A stretch of DNA of 64,000 bases from Candidatus Beckwithbacteria bacterium GW2011_GWC1_49_16 (GCA_001029675.1 CP011210.1:128193-192192); one strand, 5' to 3'; shown: positions 1,837 through 33,946, numbered from the stretch's first letter. Made by a program: numbers and translations. Notes: generated by a model from the letters alone, not told the origin.

Positions 1837-2580
1837 TTAGCCGGTTTGGGGTTTGACTTCCAGGAAGGGTTTTTGTGCTTCAGGAATGAGGTCGGGGTTA
1901 ACCGGAAAGTGGATGGTGGCGTAGGGGGGGCGGGGGATTTGGTTGCGGTTAAGGTTTGGAGCCAGCCGGCCTTTGATGGCCAGGCTTTCTCGGCCCTGAC
2001 CGCCGTCGTCGCAGCCGTAGCCGTGGATCCAGATAGACGGATGAAAGGAAAACATGGCCCGGCCGTGGGCAAGACCGGGAAGGTTGATCTTGCCGCCCGG
2101 GGTTTTTGAGGCCAGGGCGTAGACGTAAAACTTGGGGTAGGGCAGTTTAGTCTTTCGGGAGCGGTTTAAAGCGTCAAACTGGTTTTTGATGGTGCTGATG
2201 GCGCAGTTTAAGGTGTTTTGAGTGTCGACTACGGCCTCGGTGAAAACAACGGGCAGGACCCGGCCGGACTTTTTGATGATGAAATCCAGGTGGGGAGGGT
2301 AGAGGCAGGCAGGTTTACTCCGGCGGCGGTTTTGTTCGTCGTAGTAGCTGATGCGCATCGGGTTGACCCGGACCGGGCCGGCCAGGGCTAAAATGGCCCC
2401 TAGCTGGTTGCCGCCTTTGGCGATGGGAACGACGGAAACGCGGTTGTCGGGAAAGAGGTGCTTGAATTCGGCGGTTAAAGAGGCCAGAGCCTGGAGGCAA
2501 AGGCTGGAGGGGATCAAAGTAATGGCGGTGTCAAAAGAAGTGGCGGCAGCAATGGGGTTTTTGAGTTGGGCCATCGGCAT
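1837..2580 (-). CDS. phosphoribosyltransferase-like protein (HPRT-like fold, degenerate PRPP motif)
   Basis: VVPIAKGGNQLG, ISYYDE and VLPVVFTEAVVDTQNTL resemble the HPRT motifs VLKGG, SSY and VLIVEDIIDTGLTL. The acidic PRPP-binding residues are substituted. A C-terminal extension is present. Confidence 0.4.
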   Translation of the reverse strand: MPMAQLKNPIAAATSFDTAITLIPSSLCLQALASLTAEFKHLFPDNRVSVVPIAKGGNQLGAILALAGPVRVNPMRISYYDEQNRRRSKPACLYPPHLDFIIKKSGRVLPVVFTEAVVDTQNTLNCAISTIKNQFDALNRSRKTKLPYPKFYVYALASKTPGGKINLPGLAHGRAMFSFHPSIWIHGYGCDDGGQGRESLAIKGRLAPNLNRNQIPRPPYATIHFPVNPDLIPEAQKPFLEVKPQTG

Positions 2581-2649
2581 TATTGTAGCATTAAAACTGA
2601 CGCTTGTTTTTTACCGCAAAAGGTGCGAGAATTAGTGCGGAAAATCAAC

Positions 2650-3723
2650 ATGTATCAGCCAAAATTTACCATTAGCAACGAAATTTTAAAATATATCGGG
2701 GAGATTGGCGGAGCCAAAGAGGTAATTGATTATGCAGTGATGGTGCCGGCGTGGGAGGCGAAATTTAAAGAGGAGGCGATGGTGCGGACGGTCCATTTTG
2801 GCACCAAGATTGAAGGGAACGAACTGAATTTTTCTCAAACAGAGAGGGTAATGAAAGGTGAAGAGGTCATCGCCCGGGAAAGAGACATTCAGGAAGTTTT
2901 AAACTATAGAAACGTGATGGAATATATCGACCGATTGGGGGAGAGGTTCGGCGAGAAGGGGCCGGGCGGGTCAGCAGCCAGCTATTCCGAAGGCTGGCTC
3001 CAAAAAATCCACCAGTTGACCACCGAGAAGATTTTAGAGAAAGGTAGAGCCGGGGAGTATCGAACCAGTCGGGTGGTGGTAAAAAACAGCGCCACGGGCG
3101 AGGTGAGTTTCCGGCCGCCTTTGCCGGTGGAAGTCGAGGTGCAACTAGCCGAATTTTTTGAGTGGCTCAACAGCGACGAGGGGAAAAAGCTTCATCCGGT
3201 TTTGCGAGCCGGGATAACCCATTATGAGCTGGTGCGGATTCATCCCTTTGTGGACGGCAATGGCCGGGTGGCCAGAGCTTTTGCTCTTTTAGTTTTGTTT
3301 CGCGAAGGCTATGATGTGAAGCGGTTTTTCTCGATCGAGGAGTATTTTGACAAGAATGCCCCAGCGTATTACCAGGCGCTTCAGGCGGTGTCGCAGGCTC
3401 GCGGGGACTTGACCTTCTGGCTGGAGTTTTTTACCAAAGCTTTGGCGATTGAACTAACTAAAATTAAAGACAGGGTCAGGAGCTTGTCGATTGACTTTAA
3501 GTGGCGGGACAGGTTGGGCCGGCAGATTGCGCTTTCGGCGCGGCAGATTAAACTGATGGAAATGTTGACCGACAAAGACAAGCTTTTTATGAGGGAAGCC
3601 AGAGAGAAGTTTGCCGACGTGTCTGATGATACTATTTTGCGGGACATTAAAGATTTGATGGACAAGGGGATTTTGAAGAAGAAAGGCAGCACCAAGGCAG
3701 CGTATTACATGATGCGAAATTAA
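2650..3723 (+). CDS. Fic family protein with a C-terminal winged-HTH domain
   Basis: Fic motif HPFVDGNGRVARAF. The C-terminal helix-turn-helix region reads ILRDIKDLMDKGILKKKGSTKAAYY. The start was trimmed to Met29 (MYQPKF) to avoid overlap with the upstream gene on the opposite strand. Confidence 0.8.
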   Translation: MYQPKFTISNEILKYIGEIGGAKEVIDYAVMVPAWEAKFKEEAMVRTVHFGTKIEGNELNFSQTERVMKGEEVIARERDIQEVLNYRNVMEYIDRLGERFGEKGPGGSAASYSEGWLQKIHQLTTEKILEKGRAGEYRTSRVVVKNSATGEVSFRPPLPVEVEVQLAEFFEWLNSDEGKKLHPVLRAGITHYELVRIHPFVDGNGRVARAFALLVLFREGYDVKRFFSIEEYFDKNAPAYYQALQAVSQARGDLTFWLEFFTKALAIELTKIKDRVRSLSIDFKWRDRLGRQIALSARQIKLMEMLTDKDKLFMREAREKFADVSDDTILRDIKDLMDKGILKKKGSTKAAYYMMRN

Positions 3724-3726
3724 TTT

Positions 3727-5523
3727 ATGAAGTTCAAGCGCTTTGCCGAGTATTTAGAGAGAATTGAGCAAACGCCGTCGCGGCTTAAAATGACTTCAGT
3801 TTTGGCCGAGCTTTTTGGAGAGGCGACGGCTGACGAGATCGACCAAATGGTTTATTTGGCTTTGGGGAGATTACGGCCTAAGTACGAGAGTGTTGAGTTT
3901 AACCTGGCAGAAAAAATGATGTTTAGAGTGATGGCCGAGGCGTACCAGGTTGAGCCGGCAAAAGTAAAGCAAGCGTTCAAAAAGACTGGTGATTTAGGCG
4001 GGGCGGTGGAGGAGTTGCCCCACTTCGCCAAAGCTTCGAGGGGTACAGCTAAAGATTTATCGGTGGCAGAGGTGTACCAGCGGCTGATGGATGTAGCGGC
4101 GGACGAGGGGGTGGGTAGCCAGGAAAGAAAAGTTAACCATATGGCTAATTTGATCCGCGACCTTGACAGCCTGTCGGCAAAGTATGTGTTGCGGATTCCG
4201 GTAAAAAAGTTGAGGTTGGGGTTTTCGGACATGACGGTTTTGGATGGATTATCCTGGATGGAGGCAGGCGACAAGAGTTTGCGGCCTCAACTGGAGCGGG
4301 CTTTTAACGTGTCGGCCGATATCGGCGGCATTGCGGAGAGGTTTAAAAAAGGCGGTCTGGCCGGGGTGGCGGGGGTCAAGGTAAAGGTGGCGGTGCCGAT
4401 CAGAACGGCGCAGGCGGAAAGGCTGCCGAATGAGAAAGCGGTGGTGGAGAAACTCAAAGTGTTTGCGGTGGAGGGCAAATACGACGGTTTGAGGGTGCAA
4501 ATCCATGTCGATAAATCTCCAGACTCAAAGCGCAAGATTCAAAGTGATTTGTTCGGTGAGTCAAAAAAATTTGTGGAGATATTTTCTCGCAATCTGGACA
4601 ACATGACGCATATGTTCCCCGACATCGTGGCGGCGGCCGACAAACTAAAAGTTAAAACGGCGATTTTGGACGGGGAAGCGGTTGCGTTTGAGCCTAAAAC
4701 CGGCAAGTCTTTACCTTTTCAGGAAACGGTGACCAGAAAAAGAAAACACGGAGTCAAAAATAAGGCAAAAGAGATGCCGCTAAAGGTGATTATCTATGAT
4801 TTACTATATCTTAACGGTACAACATTGATCGAGAAACCGTTTAAGGAGAGAAGAAAGCAGCTGGAAAAAGTCTTGGGTAGGAATGGAAAAACCGACGGAC
4901 TGGAGCTGGCAGAGCAAGAAATTGTCAGCGAGCCGGAGAGGTTAAACCAGCTTTTAAAAAAATACCTTAAGGAAGGGTTAGAGGGAGTGATGTGTAAGAA
5001 GTTAACCACGGCTTATCAGGCCGGAGCCAGAAATTTTAACTGGGTGAAGCTGAAAAAAACTTCCCAAAAGGAATTGGCCGACACCATCGATTGCGTGGTG
5101 ATGGGCTATTATGCCGGCCGGGGCAAGAGGAGCGGGTTTGGTATCGGGGCGTTTTTGGTCGGTGTTACCCACAAATCCGAAGCACGAAGTACGAAATCCG
5201 AAATCGGGGTTGGGTCGGTGGCCAAAATTGGTACAGGCTTGACCGACGAGCAGTGGCGGGAGATCCGCCGGCGGGCGGACAAATTGAAAGTTAAGGCTAA
5301 ACCGGAGGAGTATGTGGTGGACAAGAATTTGGCGCCCGACGTTTGGGTGAGGCCAGAGATGGTGGTAGAGATTTTGGCGGATGAAATAACTCGCAGCCCG
5401 ATTCACGCTTTTGGCTTGGCTTTGCGTTTCCCGCGGCTTATTAGTTTTCGTGACGACAAGGATGTTGGCCAGGCGACGACAAAGCGCGAGCTTGAGCGGC
5501 TGTTTAAGCTGCAGCGGGGTTAG
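3727..5523 (+). CDS. lig: ATP-dependent DNA ligase (archaeal/eukaryotic type)
   Basis: Adenylation motif EGKYDGLRVQIH (KxDG). Length is 598 aa. The C-terminal OB-domain region reads VVEILADEITRSP. Confidence 0.9.
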   Translation: MKFKRFAEYLERIEQTPSRLKMTSVLAELFGEATADEIDQMVYLALGRLRPKYESVEFNLAEKMMFRVMAEAYQVEPAKVKQAFKKTGDLGGAVEELPHFAKASRGTAKDLSVAEVYQRLMDVAADEGVGSQERKVNHMANLIRDLDSLSAKYVLRIPVKKLRLGFSDMTVLDGLSWMEAGDKSLRPQLERAFNVSADIGGIAERFKKGGLAGVAGVKVKVAVPIRTAQAERLPNEKAVVEKLKVFAVEGKYDGLRVQIHVDKSPDSKRKIQSDLFGESKKFVEIFSRNLDNMTHMFPDIVAAADKLKVKTAILDGEAVAFEPKTGKSLPFQETVTRKRKHGVKNKAKEMPLKVIIYDLLYLNGTTLIEKPFKERRKQLEKVLGRNGKTDGLELAEQEIVSEPERLNQLLKKYLKEGLEGVMCKKLTTAYQAGARNFNWVKLKKTSQKELADTIDCVVMGYYAGRGKRSGFGIGAFLVGVTHKSEARSTKSEIGVGSVAKIGTGLTDEQWREIRRRADKLKVKAKPEEYVVDKNLAPDVWVRPEMVVEILADEITRSPIHAFGLALRFPRLISFRDDKDVGQATTKRELERLFKLQRG

Positions 5524-5557
5524 GGTTTTTTCTTAAAAAGTAGGGTAAAATATATCT

Positions 5558-5791
5558 ATGGTTTCAGCTTTACCCAAATTTCTCCATAAATATTTTTGGG
5601 GCGATCGGTTAAGCGAGCTTAATTTGAAAGATCACCGGCGCTACATTATCCAGACAATTTTGGAAAAAGGTGATCGCCGGGCGGCCTCGTGGCTAATAAA
5701 AAAAGTTGGCAAAAAAACCCTGAAAAACAACTTGCCGGTTTTGTCTTTAAGCCCTAAAGCCTTTAATTTCTGGCGGCTGTACTTGTCATGA
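5558..5791 (+). CDS. small protein, possible partner (antitoxin-like) of the downstream nucleotidyltransferase
   Basis: A 77-aa ORF overlaps the downstream gene by 4 nt (ATGA), consistent with translational coupling. No motif was recognised. Confidence 0.35.
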   Translation: MVSALPKFLHKYFWGDRLSELNLKDHRRYIIQTILEKGDRRAASWLIKKVGKKTLKNNLPVLSLSPKAFNFWRLYLS

Positions 5792-6423
5792 GCCAGAAAT
5801 TCTTCATTGATTCCCTGCCGCCTTTTACAGTTAAACTTTTAGCCTTGTTTCAGAAAGATAAATCGTCTTTTTTACCAGATTTTTATCTAACCGGAGGGAC
5901 GGCGCTTTCGTTACTTTTAGGTCACCGGGAGTCGGAAGATTTAGACTGGTTTAGCCCTAAAAATTTTGACCCGGTCAAACTTCAGTCGCAACTTTTAAAG
6001 CTCGGCAACTTATCCCGGGTGGAGTTGGAAGAAAATACTCTAAACGCTTATTTAAATGAAGTCAAAGTTCAATTTTTGGGTTATCCGTATCCCTTGTTGG
6101 GATCGCTAGCGACTTGGGGGAATATTAAAATCAGCTCTTTGCTGGACATCGCCTGTACTAAGGTGTTAACGATCGGAGTGAGGGGGAGTAAGAAAGACTT
6201 TGTTGACCTGTATTTTTTGTTAAAACAATTTTCTTTGGAAGAGTTATTTACTGCTTTAGCCAAAAAATACCGCCGGGTCGATTACAACCAGCCGCATATT
6301 TTGAAGGCTTTAGTGTATTTTGTTAATGCCGACAGTCAACCAATGCCCCGGATGCATCAACAAATCGATTGGGCAAAAATCAAGAAAGAAATAATTGGAA
6401 AAGTGAAAGCGATAAAACTTTAA
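5788..6423 (+). CDS. AbiEii/DUF1814-like nucleotidyltransferase (type IV toxin-like)
   Basis: YLTGGTALSLLLGHRESEDLDWF matches the Gly-rich GGTAL NTP-binding loop plus the acidic DxD motif typical of AbiEii-family nucleotidyltransferases. Confidence 0.55.
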   Translation: MSQKFFIDSLPPFTVKLLALFQKDKSSFLPDFYLTGGTALSLLLGHRESEDLDWFSPKNFDPVKLQSQLLKLGNLSRVELEENTLNAYLNEVKVQFLGYPYPLLGSLATWGNIKISSLLDIACTKVLTIGVRGSKKDFVDLYFLLKQFSLEELFTALAKKYRRVDYNQPHILKALVYFVNADSQPMPRMHQQIDWAKIKKEIIGKVKAIKL

Positions 6424-6480
6424 ACAGGCGCGAGCTTGAGGGATTATTTAAGCTGCAGCGGGGAAGTTGATTGAAATTAG

Positions 6481-7080
6481 TTACTGTCGTTCAATGCTGG
6501 ATGTTGTGTGGCCATCGAGACGATCAATATATTTTCCTGGATCACTTTTCTCCATATAGTTTAACCCCCGGATAAGGGAACCTTCAATTTTTGGTTCTAG
6601 ATAGCGATGCCTTCTTATAAGCTGGGCTATTTGCATGGGGTTAAATTCTCCAGTCACATATAGTCCTGTAATAAGAAAGTTTATAGCTGTGGCGTTATCC
6701 ATATTCTCGAGCGGTTCAGCCTTTATAAGCTCAGGACAGAAGACTCGGAGGTTATTTTTAATTCCTAAATGATTTAATGTTTCTAAAACTAAAGCTTTTG
6801 GATCTTGAGCCCATTCTGATTTAGTGAAAAACGCAACCCCGTCGATATCTGAATGTGGAGTAGCTACTCCTAAGGCAAATGACCCTACGACAACAATGGA
6901 AAGTTTATGTTCTCCCAAGGCCTGTTGAAGAGATTGAGTTATGTTACTAAGCCGCGCCTCGCTTTGTTGGCTGATTGAGGCATAGCTAGGGTAAGATTTA
7001 AGTTGGGAAAGGATAGTGGCGCGTTGCTGTTCAAAGCTGGCGCGCCATAATCTTATACCTCGTGGTGAAAACATACTCAT
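6481..7080 (-). CDS. nucleotidyltransferase domain protein (pol-beta-like minimal NTase with a helical C-terminal domain)
   Basis: GSFALGVATPHSDIDGVAFF is a GS...DxD pol-beta NTase motif. The start was trimmed to MSMFSPRG at 7080 to remove the overlap with the cofE-like gene. Confidence 0.6.
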   Translation of the reverse strand: MSMFSPRGIRLWRASFEQQRATILSQLKSYPSYASISQQSEARLSNITQSLQQALGEHKLSIVVVGSFALGVATPHSDIDGVAFFTKSEWAQDPKALVLETLNHLGIKNNLRVFCPELIKAEPLENMDNATAINFLITGLYVTGEFNPMQIAQLIRRHRYLEPKIEGSLIRGLNYMEKSDPGKYIDRLDGHTTSSIERQ

Positions 7081-7150
7081 TGTGAGAATTAAATTAAAAC
7101 AACGGCGAGAATTATACCACATTATTATAGGTTTGTTTACTTGTATAGGA

Positions 7151-7888
7151 CTAGGGTGAGGAATTAAGGGTTTTTTTGAAGACTTTAAGAAGCGGAGCGT
7201 AGAGGTCGGATTTGCCTTGGGGAATTTTGAGTTCAGAGAGGGTGGATTTGCTGGTGAAACGGATTTTGTCAAGGCCGCGGACAATCAAAAGTGGGGTTTG
7301 TTCGTTACCTTCGCCCATGATGACACCGCCGAAAGCGGCCAGGGCGTCGACGAGATTTGAGTTGGCCTCGACGATTTTGCGGCCGAAGATGTCCGGCTGG
7401 CCGACATAGGAATAGTTAGGATGAAAACCCCAGAAGCCGACGGAGATGCCCATATGGCCCCAGCGAAGCGGCAAACAAAAAGAGTCGGTGACGACGACGC
7501 CGAGGTTTTTTAAACGATACTTATTTCTAAGATGGGTCCAGATTTTTTTGGCAAACAGGTGGGGTTTTTGGGGTAATAAGATGTAGTGGTTTTTACCATT
7601 GGACCGGTCGACGCCGGCGTAAGGGGTTAAAGTTAAGTCCTTGACGGCCAGGCCGTGGGGGGTTTGGGGCAGCCAGCCGTCGGCCTCTTTTTTGATGAGG
7701 CGGATTTTATCTTTAAGAGTCATGTCGGGGGTGATTTTGACGCAGCGACCCTGATGGATGGAGACGAGCTTGGAGGTAATCAAAACCAAGTCTTTTTCTT
7801 TTAAGGCGGGGAGAGACTGGTCAAGGAGGCCAAAGAGATCGTCTTTTGGCGGCAGGAATTTTCTGGTTTTGACCGGAATAAAGTCCAT
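7151..7888 (-). CDS. CofE-like (F420-0:gamma-glutamyl ligase family) protein
   Basis: Block-wise similarity to CofE: ITSKLVSIHQGRCVKI, AGVDRSNG, LGVVVTDSFCLPLRWGHMGISVGFWG, VIMGEGNEQTPLLIVRGLD. Confidence 0.75.
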   Translation of the reverse strand: MDFIPVKTRKFLPPKDDLFGLLDQSLPALKEKDLVLITSKLVSIHQGRCVKITPDMTLKDKIRLIKKEADGWLPQTPHGLAVKDLTLTPYAGVDRSNGKNHYILLPQKPHLFAKKIWTHLRNKYRLKNLGVVVTDSFCLPLRWGHMGISVGFWGFHPNYSYVGQPDIFGRKIVEANSNLVDALAAFGGVIMGEGNEQTPLLIVRGLDKIRFTSKSTLSELKIPQGKSDLYAPLLKVFKKTLNSSP

Positions 7889-7905
7889 GAGTTAGGATAT
7901 TATAA

Positions 7906-10452
7906 ATGATAGACGTGGGTTTGAGTCAAAAAGAAGCAGAAAAAAGGTTAAGCCAGTTTGGCTGGAACGAGATTGCCAGGAAAAAAAGAGTCAGCGATCT
8001 GCAGTTGTTGTTAGCTCAAGTTAAATCGCCCCTGATTTATGTGTTGTTGGCGGCGATGGGCATTACCGGGGTGGTTTTACATGATGTGGAAGACACCATC
8101 GTCATTGGCCTGGCAGTGGTGTTTAACACTTTTTTGGGCTTTATCCAGGAAAGAAAAGCCAATCGGTCGCTGGAGGCTTTGGCGGCGGTGTTGACCCTTC
8201 ACGCCAAAGTGAAGAGAGACGGTAAGTGGGTGGAAATTGAAGCCAGAAAAGTAGTGCCGGGAGACGTGTTGCGGCTGGAGTTGGGTTCCAGAGTGGCGGC
8301 AGACGGAGAGGTGACGACGGCGGACTCGTTGTCGATTAATGAGGCGGTGCTGACGGGTGAGTCGGCGGCGGTGACAAAAAACAAAAAAGACAAGGCGTTC
8401 ATGGGCACGACGGTGGCCGGAGGCATCGGCGAGATGGTGGTGACCAAGACGGGGGAGAAAACCGAGTTTGGCAAAATCGCCGAGAGCCTGCAAGAAACCA
8501 AAAGCGAAGCGACTCCGCTGCAGGCCCAAATCAACCGCTTCGCTAAAACCATGGCGGTGGCGGTGTTTATCGTTTCTTTAATGGTACTGGCGGTGGGACT
8601 TTTTGTCGGAGACAGTTTCAGAGAGATTTTTCCGACAGCGGTGGCTTTGGCGGTGGCGGCTATTCCCGAAGGCTTGGCGGTATCGCTGACGGTGATTTTG
8701 GCCATAGGCATGCAGCGGATTTTAAAGAAAAAAGCTTTGGTGCGGAAACTGGTGGCGGCAGAAACTCTGGGCGGGGTGACGGTAGTTTGCGCCGACAAAA
8801 CCGGCACTCTGACCGAAGGCAAAATGCGGGTGGTTGATGTTTTGGAGAGTATTAGTCCGGACAAGAAAAGGCGGGAGATGAAGCGGGCGATGATGCTGAA
8901 AGCGGTGGTTTTGTGCAATGACATGCGGGACCCTTTGGAAGTAGCCATGATGGATTGGGCCCTTAAACAGCAATCTCACCTCCGAGGTGAAAATACCCAC
9001 GCCTCGGAGGTGTCTGGGTTTTTAGAGAAACAGTATCCGCGGCTGGACGAGATACCGTTTGACCCGAAACACCGTTATATTGCCACCTTACATAAAGTGA
9101 TCACTCCCGGAGTGTCTAGAGTAAAACACTCCGGGAGTGGAGAAACTCAAAGGTTGTTGCTGGTCGGTGGGGCGCCGGAAGAGGTCTTGGCGCGATGCGA
9201 CACCACCGAAGCCAGAAGAAAAGAGTGGCTGGAGAAAATCAACCGCGAAGGCAGACAGGGCCACCGCTTGGTAGGTTTTGCTTACCGGGAAGTAGGGGCG
9301 GATAAAAAAAACTTGGCCGATAAAGACATTAAGCAGCTGATGTGGTTGGGCAGTTTGGTGTTTGAAGATCCGATAAGAAAAGGAGTAAAGGAGTCGTTAA
9401 AAGAAGTAGCCGCGGCCGGAATTAAGGTTAAGGTAGTCACCGGCGATTACGCGCCGACGGCCGAAGCGGTGATGAAGGCTTTGGGGCTAATCGGAAGTAA
9501 AGAAGAGGGGGTAGTCATGGAAGGGAGCGAGTTAAAAAAACTGACGGATGAGGCGCTGAAGAAAAGGCTGTCGCAGGTGAAGTTGTTTGCCAGGACCACA
9601 CCGGATCAGAAGTTGAAAATCGTGGAGGTGTTACAGGGGATGGGCGAGGTGGTGGCGATGACCGGCGATGGGGTCAACGACGCGCCGGCTTTGAAAAAAG
9701 CCGATATCGGCATAGTGGTGGAGACGGCCTCGGATGTGTCCAAAGAAACGGCTGATATGGTGTTGCTCGACAGCAACTTTAAAACCATTTTGGCGGCGAT
9801 TGAGGGCGGACGGATGATTAAAGACAACTTGCGTAAAGTGATTTTGTATTTACTCGCCGATAGTTTTGGGGAGATTGTTTTGGTGGTGATGAGCCTAGTT
9901 GCTGGCATGCCTTTGCCGATAACGGCGGCGATGATTTTGTGGGTTAACTTGGTGTCGGACGGGTTTCCGGATTTGGCCTTAACAGTGGATCCGGCCGAGA
10001 AAGGTTTGTTAAAAAGGCAGCCGGAAAGCCGGCAGAGGCATTTAATTGACGCCGAGATGGCCTTGCTGATTGTTTTGATCTCGTTGGCTTCGGCGCTGAC
10101 GGCCTTTGGGGCATTTTGGTATTACTGGCATAATCCGGCTTATGGTTTGGAGCACGCCAGAACGGTGGCTTTTAACCTTTTGGGGCTAAACTCATTGTTT
10201 TACGTCTGGTCGGCCAGAAGCCTAAAGCAGCCGGTGTGGAAAGAAAGTTTATTTGAAAACCCATGGCTGGTGGTGGCGGTGCTTTTGGGGCTGGGGCTGC
10301 AGATGGTCGGAGTTTATTCCCGGGTAGGGCAAAGGTTGTTGGAGACGGTGGCGCTTGACGCTTCCGAGTGGTTGGTGGTGGTTGCCGGGAGTCTGCTGAT
10401 GATGGTAATAGTAGAAGGAGTTAAGTTCGCCTTTAACAGGCGAGAGAGGTAG
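7906..10452 (+). CDS. P-type cation-transporting ATPase (Ca2+/P2-type)
   Basis: Phosphorylation motif CADKTGTLT and hinge motif TGDGVNDAPALKKADIGI. There are 8-10 TM segments. It carries two in-frame palindromic insertions (see findings). Confidence 0.9.
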   Translation: MIDVGLSQKEAEKRLSQFGWNEIARKKRVSDLQLLLAQVKSPLIYVLLAAMGITGVVLHDVEDTIVIGLAVVFNTFLGFIQERKANRSLEALAAVLTLHAKVKRDGKWVEIEARKVVPGDVLRLELGSRVAADGEVTTADSLSINEAVLTGESAAVTKNKKDKAFMGTTVAGGIGEMVVTKTGEKTEFGKIAESLQETKSEATPLQAQINRFAKTMAVAVFIVSLMVLAVGLFVGDSFREIFPTAVALAVAAIPEGLAVSLTVILAIGMQRILKKKALVRKLVAAETLGGVTVVCADKTGTLTEGKMRVVDVLESISPDKKRREMKRAMMLKAVVLCNDMRDPLEVAMMDWALKQQSHLRGENTHASEVSGFLEKQYPRLDEIPFDPKHRYIATLHKVITPGVSRVKHSGSGETQRLLLVGGAPEEVLARCDTTEARRKEWLEKINREGRQGHRLVGFAYREVGADKKNLADKDIKQLMWLGSLVFEDPIRKGVKESLKEVAAAGIKVKVVTGDYAPTAEAVMKALGLIGSKEEGVVMEGSELKKLTDEALKKRLSQVKLFARTTPDQKLKIVEVLQGMGEVVAMTGDGVNDAPALKKADIGIVVETASDVSKETADMVLLDSNFKTILAAIEGGRMIKDNLRKVILYLLADSFGEIVLVVMSLVAGMPLPITAAMILWVNLVSDGFPDLALTVDPAEKGLLKRQPESRQRHLIDAEMALLIVLISLASALTAFGAFWYYWHNPAYGLEHARTVAFNLLGLNSLFYVWSARSLKQPVWKESLFENPWLVVAVLLGLGLQMVGVYSRVGQRLLETVALDASEWLVVVAGSLLMMVIVEGVKFAFNRRER
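8977..9012. repeat. palindromic element, variant B (CACCTCCGAGGTG / CCTCGGAGGTG) inside the P-type ATPase CDS
   Basis: Inverted 13-nt arms are separated by a 10-nt A-rich spacer. The element is translated in frame as HLRGENTHASEV. Confidence 0.7.
9102..9139. repeat. palindromic element, variant A (CACTCCCGGAGTG / CACTCCGGGAGTG) inside the P-type ATPase CDS
   Basis: Perfect reverse-complementary 13-nt arms with a 12-nt spacer. Translated in frame as TPGVSRVKHSGS. Confidence 0.75.
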
Positions 10453-10456
10453 TTTT

Positions 10457-11425
10457 ATGATTTGGCTGCAATTGTTGCTACTGACTGGTTTTTCTTTTTT
10501 ACTCATTAAAGCGACGGACATTGTCAGCGAAAGTTTGCAGCAGCTATCCAGACTGACCCGGATAGGCAAGTTTGCCATGACGTCGTTTTTGTTAACGTTG
10601 GCCACTTCGGCCCCCGAACTGGTAGTGGGCGTGGCGGCGGCCCTGGAAGGAACGCCGAACCTGGCTTTGGGGACGGTGGTGGGCAGCAACATTGCCAACG
10701 TTTCCCTGGTGATCGGCCTGGCGGCGGTAATCGGCGGCAGTTTTTCGGTGGTGGGGGAGTTTTTGAAAGTGGACATTTTTTCGGTTTTTCTGGCAGGAGT
10801 AATGCCTTTGATGTTGCTTTTGGACGGCAGGCTTTCAAGGGTGGACGGGTTGATTTTACTGCTGGTTTACGGCGCTTATAACTTTGGCTTGTTGAATAAA
10901 TATAATACCAGCCCTCCGACCAGGGGGGGGCGGCTTTTAAGCCGGATGTTTAACGGCAACAATCGCGGTAAAATGAGCCGTTGGCTGGCTTGGTTGTTTT
11001 TGGGCGGCGCCATGCTGGTGTTTGCCGCCGACATGATCGTAAATGTGGGCGCGGAATTGGCGACGGGGCTGGGGGTGCCGGTGTTTTTGATCGGTCTTTT
11101 TTTCGTGGCCATTGGTACCAGTTTACCGGAGTTGGCCTTTCAAAGCCGGGCGGTGAGAAAGGGCCAGGTGGCCATGGCCTTGGGAAATTTAATGGGCAGC
11201 GTGGTGGCTAACTCCACCTTGATTTTAGGGATAGTCAGTTTGATCAGGCCGGTGGTGCTGTACAAGGGTCTTAATGCCTATTTGCTGGCGGCGGCGGCCT
11301 TCGGGGTGATTTTTATGCTTTTCTGGTATTTGGTGAAGACCAAGAAAAAACTCGAGCGCTGGGAAGGAGCGGTACTTTTATTGGCTTACGCAGTCTTTAT
11401 GTGGTTGGAGTGGCTGGGGAAGTAA
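10457..11425 (+). CDS. Na+/Ca2+ exchanger (CaCA family, YrbG-like)
   Basis: Two alpha-repeat signatures, ATSAPELVVG and GTSLPELAFQ, in a 322-aa polytopic membrane protein. Confidence 0.85.
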   Translation: MIWLQLLLLTGFSFLLIKATDIVSESLQQLSRLTRIGKFAMTSFLLTLATSAPELVVGVAAALEGTPNLALGTVVGSNIANVSLVIGLAAVIGGSFSVVGEFLKVDIFSVFLAGVMPLMLLLDGRLSRVDGLILLLVYGAYNFGLLNKYNTSPPTRGGRLLSRMFNGNNRGKMSRWLAWLFLGGAMLVFAADMIVNVGAELATGLGVPVFLIGLFFVAIGTSLPELAFQSRAVRKGQVAMALGNLMGSVVANSTLILGIVSLIRPVVLYKGLNAYLLAAAAFGVIFMLFWYLVKTKKKLERWEGAVLLLAYAVFMWLEWLGK

Positions 11426-11445
11426 TGGTGTTACAATAGGTTTGA

Positions 11446-12795
11446 ATGAACATAATTGCCGACTTACAACTGCACAGTAAATACTCGCGGGCGGTAAGCA
11501 AAGACATGGTGATCCCGATTTTGAGCCAGTGGGGTGAGAAAAAGGGGATAGATTTACTGGCCACGGGCGACTGGACGCACCCTTTGTGGCTTAAGGAACT
11601 TGAGGCAAATTTGGAGGAGGCGGGAGAGGGAATTTACAAACTCAAAGGCAGCGAGAAAAAAACCCGGTTTTTGCTGTCCGGGGAAATATCTTCGATCTAC
11701 ACCCAGGGTGGGCAGGGGCGGAGGGTGCACACTTTGTTTTTTGCCCCGTCTTTGGCTGTTGTGGCCAAGATTAACCAGGAGTTGACTAAAAGGGGAGCTA
11801 ATTTGATGAGTGACGGGCGACCGATCGTGGGGCTTTCTTGCCAAGATCTTTGCGAAGTGGTTTGGGGAGTGGACGAGCGGGTGTTGGTGATACCGGCTCA
11901 CGCGTTCACCCCGTGGTTTGCCCTGTATGGCTCAAAGTCCGGTTTTGATTCGATTGATGAATGTTTTGGGGAATATGCCGATAAAATCTATGCTATCGAG
12001 ACAGGACTTAGTTCGGATCCGGCGATGAACTGGCAGATTGCGGATTTGGATCGGCGGGCGATTGTCAGTTTTTCTGACGCTCACAGCCCGAGGAAGCTGG
12101 GGCGCGAAGCGACGGTGTTTGAGTTTGAGGGTAAGGAAAGTGAAGACTACGGCTTCGACGATGTAGCTTGGGCGATTAAGGAGAGGTATTTAGGAGAAAA
12201 TTCAGGCAGGATGAAGATTTTGTACACCATCGAATTTCACCCGGAAGAAGGTAAATACCATTACACCGGTCATAGAAAGTGTAACGTGGTCCAGTCGCCC
12301 CAGGAAACGAGGGAAAAAGGGACGACTTGCCACGTTTGCGGCCGGTCGTTGACGGTCGGGGTGATGCATCGAGTGGAGGAGTTGGCTAAAGATAGGCCAG
12401 AGATTGAGCCGAAAAAGAAAGAAGGCAAGACCGGAGTGGTGGGTTACTGGCATCCTGAAGACGAAACCCGGCCGCCTTACGTGATGCTGGTGCCTTTGCA
12501 CGAAATTTTGGCCGAAGCCTTGGGAGTGGGAGAGTCGAGTCAGAAGGTTGGGGGAGTTTATGAGCTGTTGGTGGGTAAATTCGGCGGCGAGTTTGAGGTG
12601 CTACTTAAAGCCGAAACCAGCCAGATTGGTAAAGTGGCCGGTTCACGGGTGGCCGAGGCAGTAGACAGGGTGAGGCGGGGGGAGATAGAAGTCAAGCCTG
12701 GCTATGACGGGGTGTTTGGGGAGGTGTCGATCTGGGCCTCCGACGCATTAGCTTCTGAGGTTAAACCCGCAGAGCAGCCGGATTTGTTTTCTTGA
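11446..12795 (+). CDS. endoQ: endonuclease Q (PHP-domain, zinc-finger deaminated-base endonuclease)
   Basis: Close block similarity to Pyrococcus EndoQ: DLQLHSKYSRAVSKDM, TGDWTHPLWLKEL, RRVHTLFFAP, IPAHAFTPWFALY, SFSDAHSPRKLGREATVFEF, zinc finger CHVCGRS, RPPYVMLVPLHEILA. Confidence 0.8.
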   Translation: MNIIADLQLHSKYSRAVSKDMVIPILSQWGEKKGIDLLATGDWTHPLWLKELEANLEEAGEGIYKLKGSEKKTRFLLSGEISSIYTQGGQGRRVHTLFFAPSLAVVAKINQELTKRGANLMSDGRPIVGLSCQDLCEVVWGVDERVLVIPAHAFTPWFALYGSKSGFDSIDECFGEYADKIYAIETGLSSDPAMNWQIADLDRRAIVSFSDAHSPRKLGREATVFEFEGKESEDYGFDDVAWAIKERYLGENSGRMKILYTIEFHPEEGKYHYTGHRKCNVVQSPQETREKGTTCHVCGRSLTVGVMHRVEELAKDRPEIEPKKKEGKTGVVGYWHPEDETRPPYVMLVPLHEILAEALGVGESSQKVGGVYELLVGKFGGEFEVLLKAETSQIGKVAGSRVAEAVDRVRRGEIEVKPGYDGVFGEVSIWASDALASEVKPAEQPDLFS

Positions 12796-12852
12796 CAGAC
12801 GGGGCATAATAAGGGATATTGGTGGTAGTTATTAAATTTTGCGGGGGTAAAC

Positions 12853-13188
12853 ATGGCAAACAAAAAAATGACAGTTGCCTTTGGTCTTGAGGAAAATGTA
12901 GCTTGTGCTTTGGCCTATGTGGGCGGCTGGCTGTCGGGCTTAATATTTTTGCTGGTAGAAAAAGACAACGGCACGGTGCGCTTTCATGCCATGCAGAGCA
13001 TTTTGGCTTTTGGTGGTTTGATGGTACTGATGTTTGTGCCGATTGTCGGCTGGGTGTTGAGCCCGTTTTTGTGGATTATTAGCTTTGTGGTCTGGCTTTA
13101 TAGCGTCTACAAAGCCTACCAGGGTGAGAAGTTTAAGTTACCGATTGTGGGCAAAATTGCCCAGCAGCAGTTGAAGAAGATTAAATAA
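12853..13188 (+). CDS. DUF4870-family small membrane protein
   Basis: CALAYVGGWLSGLIFLLVEKDNGTVRFHAMQSIL resembles the DUF4870 consensus. Confidence 0.6.
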   Translation: MANKKMTVAFGLEENVACALAYVGGWLSGLIFLLVEKDNGTVRFHAMQSILAFGGLMVLMFVPIVGWVLSPFLWIISFVVWLYSVYKAYQGEKFKLPIVGKIAQQQLKKIK

Positions 13189-13376
13189 TGTTTATGATTG
13201 ACGGCAGTAATTAGTCTTTGATCGTTCTGGCTCGACAGCGGGCACTGCGACGTGCCACGTCAAGATCTTGCGCGCGACGTTGCCCGCCTGTCTACGCAGA
13301 GCCGTCAAGGTCGAGGTCCGACCTTATTGAAAAATTACGGTTTACTGTTTACAGATTACTGATTACTATTAAGTTG

Positions 13377-13916
13377 ATGATATTTCAAGATCGAGAGGAA
13401 GCGGGTAAAAAGTTGGCCGATAAGGTAAAAGGATTTGTTTCCGGGAGCGCCCGCCTGCCGGCGAGGCAGGGTCTGGTGTTGGGGATTCCGCGAGGCGGAG
13501 TGGTGACGGCCAAAGTGGTGGCGGAGAAGTTGGGGTGGCCTTTGGATGTTTTGCGAGCCAAAAAAATCGGGGCGCCGGGCAATCCGGAACTAGCCATCGG
13601 GGCCAAGGTGCGGTCGCCATACCCTAAGCTTTCAGGAGTTAAACAAGTGGTTTTAGTCGACGACGGAGTGGCAACAGGGCATACGGTTGAGGCGGGAGTC
13701 AAGTGGCTTAAAGCCAACGGGGTTGAGAAGGTAATCGTGGCCGTGCCGGTGGCGGCTAAAGACTCGGCTAAAAAACTTAAAAAATTGGCCCCGCATGCGC
13801 GGGGTAAACCTGAGTGGGTTTGTTTGCTAGAGCCGGAAAACTTTTACGCCGTAGGGCAGTTTTACCGCCATTTTCCCCAGGTGACGGATGAAGAGGTGAG
13901 AGAGATTTTGGTATAA
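13377..13916 (+). CDS. phosphoribosyltransferase
   Basis: PRPP-binding motif VVLVDDGVATGHT and the LVLGIPRGG loop. The start was trimmed to MIFQDREEAG. The upstream 160 nt is better read as a structured leader than as coding. Confidence 0.7.
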   Translation: MIFQDREEAGKKLADKVKGFVSGSARLPARQGLVLGIPRGGVVTAKVVAEKLGWPLDVLRAKKIGAPGNPELAIGAKVRSPYPKLSGVKQVVLVDDGVATGHTVEAGVKWLKANGVEKVIVAVPVAAKDSAKKLKKLAPHARGKPEWVCLLEPENFYAVGQFYRHFPQVTDEEVREILV

Positions 13917-13937
13917 TAAGCGGCCTGCTCGGAATTT

Positions 13938-14357
13938 ATGTCTATTGAGCAGCAGAGAGCCAGCGAAATTAGCGTTTGGAGAGCCAGAGTGGAGCAGCTG
14001 CAAAGAAGAAGAGACCGATTTGTGGCCGCGAGCATTCCTGGTTGGGTATCAATGGCAGTGGTGCTGCCAAAACTCCTTCAAGAGGCATTTGATTCAAGTG
14101 AGCCGATTGAGTTTGGATTAAAAATTGCCGGCCCTTTATCAATTTTAGCTGGATGGGGGCTGTTTGAGGCGGCAGAGTATACAGAGCTTGCCCGACTGAA
14201 AGTTATAGACAATCTTCATAGGGCTGGAGAAGATGTAGCAGAAATGTTGATAGCTGGAAAATTTCCCTGGGTGAGGCATTTTGCTGATAGCGAGCCGACG
14301 TATATAAAAATACCCAGGTTGTTACGGGAGAGACGAGAGCGAGGTAGGGGGATGTAG
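13938..14357 (+). CDS. hypothetical protein
   Basis: A 139-aa ORF with no recognised motif. Confidence 0.45.
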   Translation: MSIEQQRASEISVWRARVEQLQRRRDRFVAASIPGWVSMAVVLPKLLQEAFDSSEPIEFGLKIAGPLSILAGWGLFEAAEYTELARLKVIDNLHRAGEDVAEMLIAGKFPWVRHFADSEPTYIKIPRLLRERRERGRGM

Positions 14358-14379
14358 GGATATTTGCTAGAATGGGGGT

Positions 14380-14856
14380 ATGAAACTCGTAGTCGGGCTA
14401 GGGAATCCGGGAGAAAAGTATCAAAATACAAGGCATAACGTGGGGTTTTTGGTGGTGGATAGATTGCGCGAGCGTTTGGACGAGGGGAAAGATCGGGTGT
14501 TGTTTTTGAAGCCAGATAAATTTATGAACCAGTCGGGGGCGGTGGTAAAGGCTTTTTTAAAAAAGCATCCGAAGGTAAAGCCGGAGGAGATGTATGTGGC
14601 TCACGACGATTTGGACATAAAACTGGGAGAATATAAGATTTCTTTTGGCAAAGGACCCAGAGATCACAACGGCCTAAAGTCGATTTATGAGCAGTTGGGG
14701 ACCAAAGAGTTCTGGCACGTGAGGGTGGGGATTGACGGCCCGCGGGGTGAGGTTAAAAGTGGCGAGGAGTATGTTTTATCCAGTTTTCGGCCGGAGGAAA
14801 AGTCAATAGTTAATTCAATAGTTAATTCGGTAGTTAAGGCGATAGTTAAATTATGA
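14380..14856 (+). CDS. pth: peptidyl-tRNA hydrolase
   Basis: MKLVVGLGNPGEKYQNTRHNVGF is the canonical Pth N-terminus. Confidence 0.9.
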   Translation: MKLVVGLGNPGEKYQNTRHNVGFLVVDRLRERLDEGKDRVLFLKPDKFMNQSGAVVKAFLKKHPKVKPEEMYVAHDDLDIKLGEYKISFGKGPRDHNGLKSIYEQLGTKEFWHVRVGIDGPRGEVKSGEEYVLSSFRPEEKSIVNSIVNSVVKAIVKL

Positions 14857-15155
14857 GTAAAACTGACAAAAAATCTCCCACTTCGCTGGGGGATTTACTC
14901 TCCGGCTATGATTGGGATAAGAAGAAATACATCAGCCGGGAGTGGCAGGATTATGCTTACCGGCTGGCGGTGGCTTTGGACGATTTGAAAAACAAATCAC
15001 TTTACATGAAATTAGCCAAAGAAACACCCCGGGCCTGGCTGGAAGAAGCCAAAAACTTTGTCAAAGACGCTTACGAAGTCAAGAGCAAAGCGAGGCTGTT
15101 TATGTGGAAATTAAAAGAGATTAGAAAAGAGAAGAAGAATGAAAAGAAAAAGTAG
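14853..15155 (+). CDS. hypothetical protein with a Lys-rich C-terminus
   Basis: A 100-aa ORF, 4-nt overlap-coupled to pth. Confidence 0.45.
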   Translation: MSKTDKKSPTSLGDLLSGYDWDKKKYISREWQDYAYRLAVALDDLKNKSLYMKLAKETPRAWLEEAKNFVKDAYEVKSKARLFMWKLKEIRKEKKNEKKK

Positions 15156-15170
15156 TTTTTTTGGCCAAAT

Positions 15171-15443
15171 ATGAAGCAGCGGGTACATCTTTATATTTCG
15201 GGTATAGTCCAGGGAGTAGGGTTTAGGTATTTTTTGAAGCAGACGGCCGACGCTTTGGGTATTTTTGGTTGGGCAAAAAATTTGGCCGGCGGCAGGGTAG
15301 AGGTAGTGTTTGAAGGGGAGAAAGGGGCGGTAAAACAAGCGGTCAACGAAGCTTGGCAGGGACCGCCGGCGGGTAAGGTGAGAGAGGTTGAAGTGGTTGG
15401 TGAGGCTTGGCAGGGGGAGAAGGAGTTTGCTATAGTGAGGTAA
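15171..15443 (+). CDS. acyP: acylphosphatase
   Basis: VQGVGFRYF and GWAKNLAGGRVEVVFEG signatures. Confidence 0.85.
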   Translation: MKQRVHLYISGIVQGVGFRYFLKQTADALGIFGWAKNLAGGRVEVVFEGEKGAVKQAVNEAWQGPPAGKVREVEVVGEAWQGEKEFAIVR

Positions 15444-15449
15444 GCCGAC

Positions 15450-16013
15450 ATGACTCGTAGAAAGACAAGCTTGTTTATTCTCGCAGGATATTTACTGGGA
15501 GTGGCGGTGACGGGGATAATTAGGGGAAAGATAGTTTTGCTGGCCGACTGGTTAGACGTGACGGGACTGTTTGTCGGCGGGGTTTTGGGTTGGCTGTTGG
15601 TGAACTTGGACCGGTTGGTTTATGTTTATTTTTCCCACGCAGGCACCCAAATGGCCCAGTACGCCAGATACCAGTTTGACCAGAAAAAATGGCGGGAGGG
15701 GTGGCGGATTTTGGAAATGAGGCAGGACGAGATGGAAGAGCTGACTTTCAGAAGCGCGCTGTTTCAGGCGGCGTGGGTGGTTTTGGCCTTGTTTGCTTTG
15801 ACCTCGACGGCGTCACTTTTTGGTAAAAGTTTAGTGATGGGGGTGGGCTTGAAGATTTTGGTAGACGAGTGGCGGGATTACCTTTATGCTCGAGGGACAC
15901 TCAAGCGCTGGCTGTTTTGGCAGGTGAAACGGGAGATAACCGATACAGAGGTGAAGGTTTATCTTTACGTGATGACGGCGGCGTTTTTGCTATTAACCCT
16001 GTTACTGCTATAA
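15450..16013 (+). CDS. hypothetical membrane protein
   Basis: A 187-aa ORF with about four hydrophobic segments. Confidence 0.5.
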   Translation: MTRRKTSLFILAGYLLGVAVTGIIRGKIVLLADWLDVTGLFVGGVLGWLLVNLDRLVYVYFSHAGTQMAQYARYQFDQKKWREGWRILEMRQDEMEELTFRSALFQAAWVVLALFALTSTASLFGKSLVMGVGLKILVDEWRDYLYARGTLKRWLFWQVKREITDTEVKVYLYVMTAAFLLLTLLLL

Positions 16014-16020
16014 TAGGGGC

Positions 16021-16740
16021 TTGAGAATGATAGTCAAAAAGCCGAATACGTTTGTTTTGGATCTGGGCGGGTCGGTGTTTGCCCCTAACAGCAGAGCCAA
16101 GGGGATTGATATTGCCTATCTCAAGCAATTTGAGAAGTTTATCAGAAAGCAAGTCGCCTTAAAGAGGCGATTTTTTATTGTCACCGGCGGCGGCTATGTG
16201 GCCCGCGAGTACCGCGATGCGGCGGCGGCGGCGGTGGGGGGAAAGATTGCCGACGAGGACTTGGACTGGCTGGGAGTACACGCCACCAGGTTAAACGCCC
16301 ATTTGTTTCGGACGATTTTCCGTGACATTGCTTATCCGTGGATTTTAAAGCATTATGATTTGGTCGATAAGAAAGTGACCACGCCGGTGGTGGTCTGTGG
16401 CGGCTGGAAGCCGGGCTGGTCCACCGATTACTGTAGCGTCCTGGTGGCGGCGGATTACCATATCGACACGGTGATCAGCTTGACCAATGTTGACTATGCT
16501 TATGACAAAGACCCGAATAAGTATAAAGGGGCTAAGCCGATCAAAACCATGGGCTGGGACGAGATGATTAAACTGGTGGGTAAAAAGTGGCGGCCGGGAA
16601 TGAACACGCCCTTTGATCCGGTGGCTTCCCGCGAGGCCAAGAAGTTCGGTTTGAAAGTGGTGATTGCCAACGGCAGGAAGTTTGCCAATTTGGAACGGAT
16701 TTTAGACGGAAAAACTTTTACCGGCACGGTGATTGAGTAG
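16021..16740 (+). CDS. pyrH: UMP kinase, archaeal-type (amino-acid-kinase family)
   Basis: LDLGGSVF, IVTGGGYVAREY, VVVCGGWKPGWSTDY...TNVDYAY..DP and GTVIE match the archaeal uridylate kinase blocks. Confidence 0.7.
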   Translation: MRMIVKKPNTFVLDLGGSVFAPNSRAKGIDIAYLKQFEKFIRKQVALKRRFFIVTGGGYVAREYRDAAAAAVGGKIADEDLDWLGVHATRLNAHLFRTIFRDIAYPWILKHYDLVDKKVTTPVVVCGGWKPGWSTDYCSVLVAADYHIDTVISLTNVDYAYDKDPNKYKGAKPIKTMGWDEMIKLVGKKWRPGMNTPFDPVASREAKKFGLKVVIANGRKFANLERILDGKTFTGTVIE

Positions 16741-20301: not shown

Positions 20302-20670
20302 TTGAAAATTCTGATTATTTATGATATTGGTGTCAGTATTATGGAAGGAGAGAGGAAATTTGACAGAGGTGGAGTCGGAGAAGAGTTTACGGTTAAAGCC
20401 GGAACCCCTCTTGAAGCTCTTATGAGTTTAAGGGCGTCGGTGATAATGTCAGAAAGGATGCCGACCATGATACAGAGAGGAGAAGCCAGGCGAAAGTCTT
20501 TTTTAGACGCGGTGCGATTTTTAAGAAGAACACCCGATGTAGACAAAAGAAAATCTTTATTAGAGGGTCTTAGGTCGACCGAGCCTGGGGTAGCCCAAAA
20601 AGTAGAGCGGACTTTGAACTTAACCAAGGCAATTGTGGTGATGATGCAGACGGCTAAAAGCCAGGGTTGA
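20302..20670 (+). CDS. hypothetical protein
   Basis: A 122-aa ORF. The start is uncertain. Confidence 0.3.
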   Translation: MKILIIYDIGVSIMEGERKFDRGGVGEEFTVKAGTPLEALMSLRASVIMSERMPTMIQRGEARRKSFLDAVRFLRRTPDVDKRKSLLEGLRSTEPGVAQKVERTLNLTKAIVVMMQTAKSQG

Positions 20671-21596: not shown

Positions 21597-21610
21597 GTGG
21601 TTGGGGGATT

Positions 21611-22939: not shown

Positions 22940-22946
22940 TAAATCA

Positions 22947-28979: not shown

Positions 28980-29053
28980 GGGCGCTTAGCTCAGTTGGTT
29001 AGAGCGCAGTCCTGATAAGACTGAGGTCCATGGTTCGAGTCCATGAGCGCCCA
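28980..29053 (+). tRNA. tRNA-Ile (anticodon GAT)
   Basis: Cloverleaf with acceptor GGGCGCT/AGCGCCC, anticodon loop CCTGATAAG, T-arm GGTTCGAGTCC. Confidence 0.9.
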
Positions 29054-30212: not shown

Positions 30213-30285
30213 GGGCCCATGGCGCAGTTGGTAGCGCGTCTCGTTTGCAACGAGAAGGTCGTCGGTTCGACCCCGACTGGGTCCA
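30213..30285 (+). tRNA. tRNA-Ala (anticodon TGC)
   Basis: Acceptor stem with the G3:U70 Ala identity pair, anticodon loop TTTGCAA, T-arm GGTTCGACCCC. Confidence 0.9.
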
Positions 30286-30929: not shown

Positions 30930-30970
<41 letters not shown>

Positions 30971-33119: not shown

Positions 33120-33236
33120 AGCGAAGTACCTTGTCGGGTAAGTTCCGACGCGCACGAAAGGTGTAACGACTTGGCAACTGTCTTGACCACTGATCCGGTG
33201 AAATTGAAATGGCTGTGAAGATGCGGCCTATTGACT

Positions 33237-33267
<31 letters not shown>

Positions 33268-33908: not shown

Positions 33909-33946
<38 letters not shown>

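Follow-up and report, generated by a model that had tools for sequence, protein, structure and literature searches.

Among bacterial members of the endonuclease Q (EndoQ) family, one, from Bacillus pumilus, has been characterized. Residue roles are best taken from the structure of the Pyrococcus furiosus enzyme (Pfu EndoQ), in which the metal ligands of the PHP domain are H8, H10, E76, H84, H139 and D193, the H8A mutant retains about half of its activity, and the lesion pocket is formed by H139, T142, E167, L168, G169, L170, N191 and D193, with L168 and N191 touching the base through main-chain atoms (PMC5961232). Archaeal EndoQ also bears a PCNA-binding PIP box, and a corresponding motif in the bacterial homologue has already been noted (Shiraishi et al., 2016; PMC4858679). 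For the CofE fold of gamma-glutamyl ligases, the closest precedent is CT611 (FolC2), a CofE homologue from Chlamydia that complements an E. coli folC mutant (PMC1971073). Here, we analyze a stretch of 64,000 nucleotides (the window) from the ~1.05 Mb genome of Candidatus Beckwithbacteria bacterium GW2011_GWC1_49_16 (CP011210.1:128193-192192), in which positions 3727-16740 encode homologues of EndoQ and CofE, together with an ATP-dependent DNA ligase and a UMP kinase (PyrH). The host, an ultra-small groundwater bacterium, belongs to Bacteria, Patescibacteria group, Microgenomates group, within the candidate phyla radiation (CPR). The window's rRNAs are bacterial 16S and 23S, and it also encodes typical bacterial Pth, Rho, RadA, Obg, DprA, ComM, sortase, MnmA and S1.

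We consider it probable that 3727-16740 is an ordinary, vertically inherited piece of Beckwithbacteria chromosome, that it carries four genuine, probably functional and mutually independent housekeeping genes, and that their archaeal flavour is lineage-wide. An initial annotation had grouped the four as an archaeal-flavoured repair and nucleotide kit. All four genes are indeed present and match their families strongly, with E-values well outside what chance would give, and comparisons with NCBIfam and the PDB agree that for the ligase, EndoQ and PyrH the closest characterized proteins come from archaea, so that "archaeal-type" is a fair label for these three. The idea of a kit does not hold, as the genes form neither an island nor an operon and belong to a Microgenomates synteny block broken up by unrelated genes. 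The genome is already published, and the ligase, CofE homologue, EndoQ and PyrH are identical to proteins deposited at NCBI for Candidatus Beckwithbacteria, most of them already named (AKM78918.1, AKM78922.1, AKM78925.1 and AKM78933.1). All four also match entries in several Candidatus Beckwithbacteria assemblies from the Rifle aquifer, and each adds one more member, from a genome already known, to an established family.

EndoQ proved to be widespread in Bacteria. A protein search returned at least 8000 homologues, among which the top 120 were compared; these are 53-75% identical to the window protein, and every named one is from Patescibacteria. With each GTDB species represented by one genome, a scan gave at least 595 confirmed loci, with synteny and taxonomy analyzed on the best 80, all of which are bacterial. 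The CPR loci among these 80 span six Microgenomates classes, Parcubacteria and Saccharibacteria, while the remainder come from Bipolaricaulota/Acetothermia, Thermodesulfobacteria (including the cultured Thermodesulfatator autotrophicus), Chloroflexota, WOR-3, Aminicenantes and Thermotogae. With close homologues in this many species genomes and proteins, the description of EndoQ as rare in Bacteria, on which the initial annotation relied, is outdated. EndoQs from bacterial genomes share 45-59% identity with the window protein and 30-39% with Pfu EndoQ. In a neighbour-joining tree, built without support values and rooted on Pfu EndoQ as the sole archaeal outgroup, they cluster by bacterial taxon and the window sequence falls within the Microgenomates clade. 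Placement within ordinary bacterial clades had been named as what would speak against the initial annotation, and EndoQ does fall in a broad bacterial clade whose branching tracks bacterial taxonomy, which for this protein counts against it. Our literature search on EndoQ, or on ATP- or NAD-dependent ligases, in CPR bacteria found nothing relevant.

Many of the metagenome-assembled genomes in this set carry unexpected titles: L019, L020, L024, L028-L030, L033, L034 and others (binchicken/co-assembly isolates) are titled "uncultured Gammaproteobacteria bacterium", and one is titled "Clostridia". These genomes have a Microgenomates-type EndoQ in the order Fic-Lig-EndoQ-Pth and the tree places them with Microgenomates; their titles are probably placeholder or wrong taxonomy.

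The window EndoQ aligns over its full length with Pfu EndoQ (PDB 5zb8, E = 1.8e-50) and matches TIGR00375 (E = 1.3e-53). The PHP catalytic residues, whose loss would have told against the initial assignment, are for the most part kept in the alignment: H10, E76, H84, H139, D193 and H195 are retained, including five of the six PHP metal ligands, and only H8 is changed. Across 118 relatives, none of these residues varies, nor do R114, T142, E167, G169 and L170. The lesion-recognition pocket is likewise predicted to be kept, with H139, T142, E167, G169, L170 and D193 invariant and with L168 and N191 replaced in the window protein by T and F. At the positions of the Pfu zinc-finger cysteines C249, C252, C268 and C271 the window protein reads H-C-C-C, and the histidine is found in 118/118 close relatives and 75/77 bacterial genome homologues. 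Histidine can also serve as a zinc ligand, and a four-ligand zinc finger of HCCC type is predicted to be present. The protein ends in QPDLF, a beta-clamp-type motif; a C-terminal Q..[LMIVF][FLYW] motif occurs in 118/119 close relatives and at 50/80 genome loci, with QLGLF, QLNLF and QMSLF as typical bacterial ends. We dropped this motif as a novelty, since it had been described before (Shiraishi et al., 2016; PMC4858679). Given the bacterial spread, the taxon-grouped tree, and the H249 and beta-clamp signatures, EndoQ is, as far as its sequence tells, a long-resident gene adapted to bacteria.

In two genomes of Chloroflexota type (L082 3001-6409, from Caldilinea sp., and L087), EndoQ and a full UvrD-type helicase are joined in a single protein. 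The fusion proteins are 1135-1168 amino acids long, match UvrD-helicase at 250 bits and UvrD_C at 167 bits, and still end in QLGLF. Such fusions would tie EndoQ to nick-directed excision, and they account for the name "DNA helicase UvrD" that some databases give to EndoQ homologues. A 690-amino-acid "EndoQ" at L071 was set aside, as it is only an upstream extension of the open reading frame (ORF) in a high-GC genome. Another homologue, the 785-amino-acid protein P0028, is interrupted by an intein with LAGLIDADG domains (PF14890, PF14528). Conserved-looking ORFs that overlap EndoQ, antisense or in another frame, were judged spurious and left out of the neighbourhood clustering.

The DNA ligase has the three domains of Lig1-type enzymes (Pfam DNA_ligase_A_N, E = 2e-36; DNA_ligase_A_M, E = 7e-48; DNA_ligase_A_C, E = 3e-18), scores 355.3 bits against TIGR00574, above the cut-off of 217.8, and finds its best solved relative in Sulfolobus solfataricus (2hiv, E = 2.7e-98, 333 bits), which confirms that it is an archaeal/eukaryal-type ATP-dependent ligase. 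Models of the bacterial LigB, LigC and LigD give at most 236 bits. Motif I lies in EGKYDGLR, with KYDG at residues 251-254 and K251 as its lysine, and an AlphaFold2 model of the protein has a mean predicted local distance difference test score (pLDDT) of 86. Homologues are numerous (7716 matches); identity is 52-68% over the top 120, whose named members come from Beckwithbacteria or Patescibacteria.

A lineage-specific loop of this ligase, at residues 262-280 (window 4510-4566), contains QSDLF. In the Beckwithbacteria clade the loops are variable and 19-30 residues long, and 56 of 71 share [QN]xx[LIM]F as a core, compared with 1.7 after shuffling. The AlphaFold model drops below a pLDDT of 50 over just one long segment, residues 270-279. 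The loop motif resembles a short linear motif that could possibly bind the beta clamp. As a general trait of Microgenomates ligases the QxxLF loop was rejected, the insertion being absent from the ligases of Levy-, Curtiss-, Davies- and Gottesmanbacteria.

PyrH was assigned from NCBIfam and PDB scores, which bear out the archaeal-type identity first proposed for it. It reaches 175.4 bits against the archaeal equivalog TIGR02076 (pyrH_arch), above the cut-off of 158, and 49.7 bits against the bacterial TIGR02075, and in the PDB it matches UMP kinases from archaea best (E = 2e-26). In one CPR contig (L012, 4862-6462), rpsB-tsf is followed by PSP1 and GAPDH genes, not by the usual pyrH-frr; this single observation is consistent with a bacterial-type pyrH gone from its canonical place.

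The CofE homologue matches PF01996 (F420_ligase, E = 5.7e-29). It scores 201.8 bits against TIGR04132, a putative folate-metabolism gamma-glutamate ligase, and 102 bits against TIGR01916 (CofE), and TIGR04132 beats the CofE model in 16/16 diverse family members. The search gave ~2000 CofE-family homologues, the named ones again from Patescibacteria. We counted gene neighbours at 80 metagenome loci and in five contigs looked up independently. At 19 of the 80 loci the next gene downstream of the CofE-like one belongs to the DHFR family, on the same strand in 13 (in some overlapping the CofE-like gene) and as a convergent canonical DHFR_1 in six; a DHFR gene also follows in three of the five contigs (L007, L011 and L012). 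A gene for the "vitamin uptake transporter" Vut_1 is present at 7/80 loci. The model fit, this DHFR and Vut_1 context and the precedent of CT611 make folate polyglutamylation the best reading: the CofE homologue most likely adds gamma-glutamates to folates, in the manner of FolC2, rather than to F420. The initial annotation had suspected a substrate other than F420, and with the better fit of TIGR04132 and the DHFR genes adjoining its relatives that substrate can now be narrowed to folate as the most likely candidate. As the protein stays below the TIGR04132 cut-off, we place it in a distinct, Patescibacteria-wide subfamily. The CofE homologue, the DHFR-family gene and Vut_1 occur together in the CPR contigs L108, L118, L161 and L011, a grouping that may represent a three-gene folate-salvage module.

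The four genes lie among the following features (for the DUF6922/AbiEii pair, the window coordinate equals the L001 coordinate + 1445):

2566..3723, + strand: Fic/DOC protein with a DeoR-type helix-turn-helix (HTH) domain (Pfam Fic, E = 3.6e-21), first gene of the conserved block
3727..5523, + strand: three-domain Lig1-type ATP-dependent DNA ligase, 598 amino acids (Pfam, NCBIfam and PDB matches)
5558..6423, + strand: DUF6922 and AbiEii toxin-antitoxin pair, a lineage-specific insertion outside the conserved block, absent here in relative L009
6481..7122, - strand: NTP_transf_2 nucleotidyltransferase (weak match), likewise an insertion
7151..7888, - strand: CofE-fold gamma-glutamyl ligase, 245 amino acids, most likely FolC2-like (PF01996, TIGR04132)
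7906..10452, + strand: P-type cation ATPase, inserted between ligase and EndoQ in Beckwith-, Shapiro- and Woesebacteria
10457..11425, + strand: Na+/Ca2+ exchanger family protein, part of the ATPase insertion
11446..12795, + strand: bacterial-type Endonuclease Q, 449 amino acids (PHP catalytic domain, predicted HCCC zinc finger, helical domain, C-terminal QPDLF)
12853..13188, + strand: DUF4870 membrane protein, a syntenic neighbour of EndoQ
13218..13916, + strand: phosphoribosyltransferase, a syntenic neighbour; deposited gene models begin later (167-179 amino acids)
14380..14856, + strand: bacterial-type peptidyl-tRNA hydrolase (Pth), the most conserved EndoQ neighbour in Microgenomates (24/80 loci)
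15171..15443, + strand: acylphosphatase, a member of the conserved block
16021..16740, + strand: archaeal-type UMP kinase PyrH; likely start ATG at 16027, giving the deposited protein of 237 amino acids

Much of this order recurs in relatives as Fic-Lig-EndoQ-(DUF4870)-(phosphoribosyltransferase)-Pth-h100-acylphosphatase. At 20 of the 80 loci, all of them from Microgenomates, EndoQ is preceded on its strand by a ligase gene, with gaps of 4 to ~2000 nucleotides; the ligases at these 20 loci are 40-50% identical. Beckwith-, Shapiro- and Woesebacteria have the ATPase and exchanger genes as an insertion ahead of EndoQ. Relative L009 (~56-62% identity) has the order Fic-Lig-CofE-ATPase-exchanger-EndoQ-DUF4870, without the toxin-antitoxin/nucleotidyltransferase insert, and both GC content and a strong positive GC skew continue across the window region with no break. 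The region is thus a conserved Microgenomates block with lineage-specific insertions. A single operon or kit was rejected because the CofE homologue and the nucleotidyltransferase are on the opposite strand, the toxin-antitoxin pair and transporter genes come in between, and some of the inserts are missing from relatives.

Two further observations concern this neighbourhood. The segment 5558-7122, with the DUF6922/AbiEii and nucleotidyltransferase genes, is absent at this place in L009 and shows a dip in GC to 0.44, consistent with a mobile insertion. The Fic/DOC-HTH gene ends 3 nucleotides before the ligase, an enzyme class that self-adenylylates, and the Fic-Lig pair is found with gaps of 6-90 nucleotides at eight other loci from several Microgenomates classes (L016, L018, L019, L025, L026, L035, L040 and L043).

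Some observations weigh against reading the region as a vertically inherited set of four functional genes with the roles given above. The window EndoQ reaches 182.8 bits against TIGR00375, under the cut-off of 326.6, despite which NCBI names its close relatives "endonuclease Q family protein". Its H8 is replaced by Q, the 118 relatives having H in 61 cases and Q in 46. The CofE homologue falls short of the cut-offs of both of its models, 350 for TIGR04132 and 180.65 for the TIGR01916 equivalog, the first of these shortfalls bearing on the folate assignment, and in the window it is not beside DHFR or other folate genes. EndoQ-Pth adjacency (24/80 loci) is at least as conserved as Lig-EndoQ adjacency, so that the latter may reflect general collinearity and not function. 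Finally, the data argue against recent transfer and are compatible both with ancient transfer into a bacterial ancestor and with vertical retention with loss elsewhere.

From these comparisons we infer how the four proteins might act. EndoQ would be tethered to the beta sliding clamp through its C-terminal QPDLF, would flip deoxyuridine, deoxyinosine or an abasic site into the conserved pocket, and would nick the strand 5' of the lesion at the PHP metal site. The Lig1-type ligase would seal nicks, and because its ancestral place in Microgenomates is immediately ahead of EndoQ, it is a candidate sealer for EndoQ-initiated repair. The archaeal-type PyrH would phosphorylate UMP to UDP, and the CofE homologue, on its model fit and gene neighbourhood, most likely gamma-glutamylates folates like Chlamydia FolC2.

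A closer coupling of the first two enzymes is possible, if doubtful: in Microgenomates, EndoQ and the ATP-dependent ligase might form a two-gene nick-and-seal module, both acting on the beta clamp, with the other genes as bystanders. The ligase directly upstream on the same strand at 20/80 EndoQ loci speaks for it (Levy-, Curtiss-, Davies- and Gottesmanbacteria, with gaps down to 4 nucleotides), as do the distance of less than 8 kb between the two genes in Beckwithbacteria, the clamp-type motif at the EndoQ C-terminus, the [QN]xx[LIM]F core in the low-pLDDT loop of 56/71 Beckwithbacteria-clade ligases (1.7 in shuffles), and the UvrD fusions, in which EndoQ appears wired into nick-directed repair. 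However, the block also keeps the unrelated Pth (24 loci), acylphosphatase and h100, so that the adjacency could be due to collinearity alone; in Parcubacteria and non-CPR phyla, no ligase lies within 3 kb at the EndoQ loci; and the loop motif is absent from other Microgenomates ligases. A bolder form of this proposal, which we regard as unlikely, is a dedicated, clamp-coupled repair module in Microgenomates with archaeal roots, in which EndoQ nicks on the 5' side of deaminated or abasic bases, the adjacent ligase seals and both have been retargeted from PCNA to the bacterial sliding clamp (EndoQ through its C-terminal QxxLF, the Beckwithbacteria-clade ligase through its QxDLF loop); in its extreme version the ligase replaces LigA at the replication fork.

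Replacement of LigA by the ATP-dependent ligase, which would then be the sole and hence replicative ligase, is quite improbable as a claim in its own right. The strong conservation of the ligase (52-68% identity over the top 120 of 7716 matches) would fit such a role, and so would the lack of LigA, which went undetected in domain and profile scans of the 64-kb window and gave no tblastn match with E. coli LigA in 1.09 Mb of the window and fetched loci, mostly CPR. We judge the latter result uninformative, as the 1.09 Mb correspond to roughly a single genome and form a redundant sample skewed towards two loci, and the window itself covers only ~6% of the genome. Against replacement, NAD-dependent LigA is regarded as near-universal in Bacteria, and many bacteria have accessory ATP-dependent ligases beside LigA.

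Still less probable is that the CofE homologue is a true F420-0:L-glutamate ligase, a reading we give very little chance. It would account for the PF01996 match, for the match to Af-CofE in the PDB (E = 6e-15) and for the name "coenzyme F420-0:L-glutamate ligase" that relatives bear in their sources. However, its 102 bits lie under the 180.65 cut-off of the CofE model, the folate-ligase model scores twice as high, its relatives are linked to DHFR and a vitamin-transporter gene and not to cof genes, and the 64-kb window holds none of the cof genes.

The inter-domain transfer raised by the initial annotation, in the form of a recently acquired archaeal island, would explain why, for the ligase, EndoQ and PyrH alike, the nearest relatives that have been characterized or solved come from archaea, but it is ruled out for practical purposes by nearest relatives that are thousands of Patescibacteria proteins at 50-75% identity (versus ~37% for the Pyrococcus EndoQ), by synteny kept across Microgenomates classes, by interleaved bacterial Pth, Fic and transporter genes, by uniform GC content and skew, and by the bacterial-specific clamp motif and zinc finger of EndoQ.

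Other parts of the window hold features unconnected with the four genes. The 23S rRNA gene (30454-34064) is 3611 nucleotides long versus 2925 for the model and contains an ORF (32545-33081, + strand) for a 178-amino-acid LAGLIDADG_1 homing endonuclease (E = 2.8e-23); the insertion is of intron type, as reported for CPR rRNA genes. In the 16S-23S spacer, between tRNAs at 28980-29053 and 30213-30285, a 292-amino-acid ORF (29092-29970, + strand) encodes an AAA/STAND-type NTPase. A giant ORF of 2547 amino acids (52307-59950, - strand) coincides with the sole dip in the strong positive GC skew, and at 20667-24491 (+ strand) a gene for a 7TM_transglut membrane protein is followed by two ATP-grasp genes (ATPgrasp_ST and ATP-grasp_3).

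The presence of the four genes as such matters little, given a published genome, deposited proteins, and bacterial EndoQ and FolC2-type CofE homologues that are already known. What our analysis adds is small in scale: the breadth and signatures of EndoQ, the Lig-EndoQ synteny, the EndoQ-UvrD fusions, the CofE-DHFR linkage and the ligase loop motif. Widespread bacterial EndoQ, notably in CPR, with a predicted HCCC finger and a beta-clamp motif corrects the view of a mainly archaeal enzyme, while the Lig-EndoQ neighbourhood of Microgenomates and the UvrD fusions suggest which enzymes act after a bacterial EndoQ nick. The pairing of CofE homologue and DHFR, sometimes with Vut_1, points to a folate-salvage module in organisms unable to make folate. 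Absence of LigA, if true, would challenge the rule that all bacteria need an NAD-dependent replicative ligase.

Set beside the known systems, the window EndoQ resembles Pfu EndoQ (PF1551, PDB 5zb8/7k30) over its full length, with PHP, zinc-finger and helical domains, the ligands H10, E76, H84, H139 and D193 as well as H195, the pocket residues T142, E167, G169 and L170, and a putative clamp-binding motif at the extreme C-terminus. It differs in sharing only ~37% identity, in having H8 replaced by Q, C249 by H and L168 by T, and in ending in QPDLF, a motif of bacterial beta-clamp type, where the Pfu enzyme has the PCNA PIP box QRTLLQYI. The ligase resembles those of Sulfolobus (2hiv) and Pyrococcus furiosus (2cfm) in its DNA-binding, adenylation and OB domains and in the motif I KYDG, and is without the 20 extra N-terminal residues of the Sulfolobus enzyme (the alignment begins at residue 21 of the 2hiv chain). 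Unlike these two enzymes, it carries a 15-22-residue insertion with QSDLF after the motif I strand, and its gene adjoins Fic in a bacterial host. PyrH, which passes the TIGR02076 cut-off, is comparable to the archaeal UMP kinase of Pyrococcus furiosus (2bri/2bmu), and is set apart by its bacterial host and by a gene position outside the usual bacterial rpsB-tsf-pyrH-frr context. The CofE homologue, finally, is comparable to Chlamydia trachomatis FolC2 (CT611, COG1478) in that its CofE fold occurs in a host from which F420 synthesis is not expected: it covers positions 1-236 of the 241 of TIGR04132 and its relatives cluster with the folate gene DHFR, and it departs from the FolC2/TIGR04132 group in scoring 201.8 bits where the cut-off is 350.

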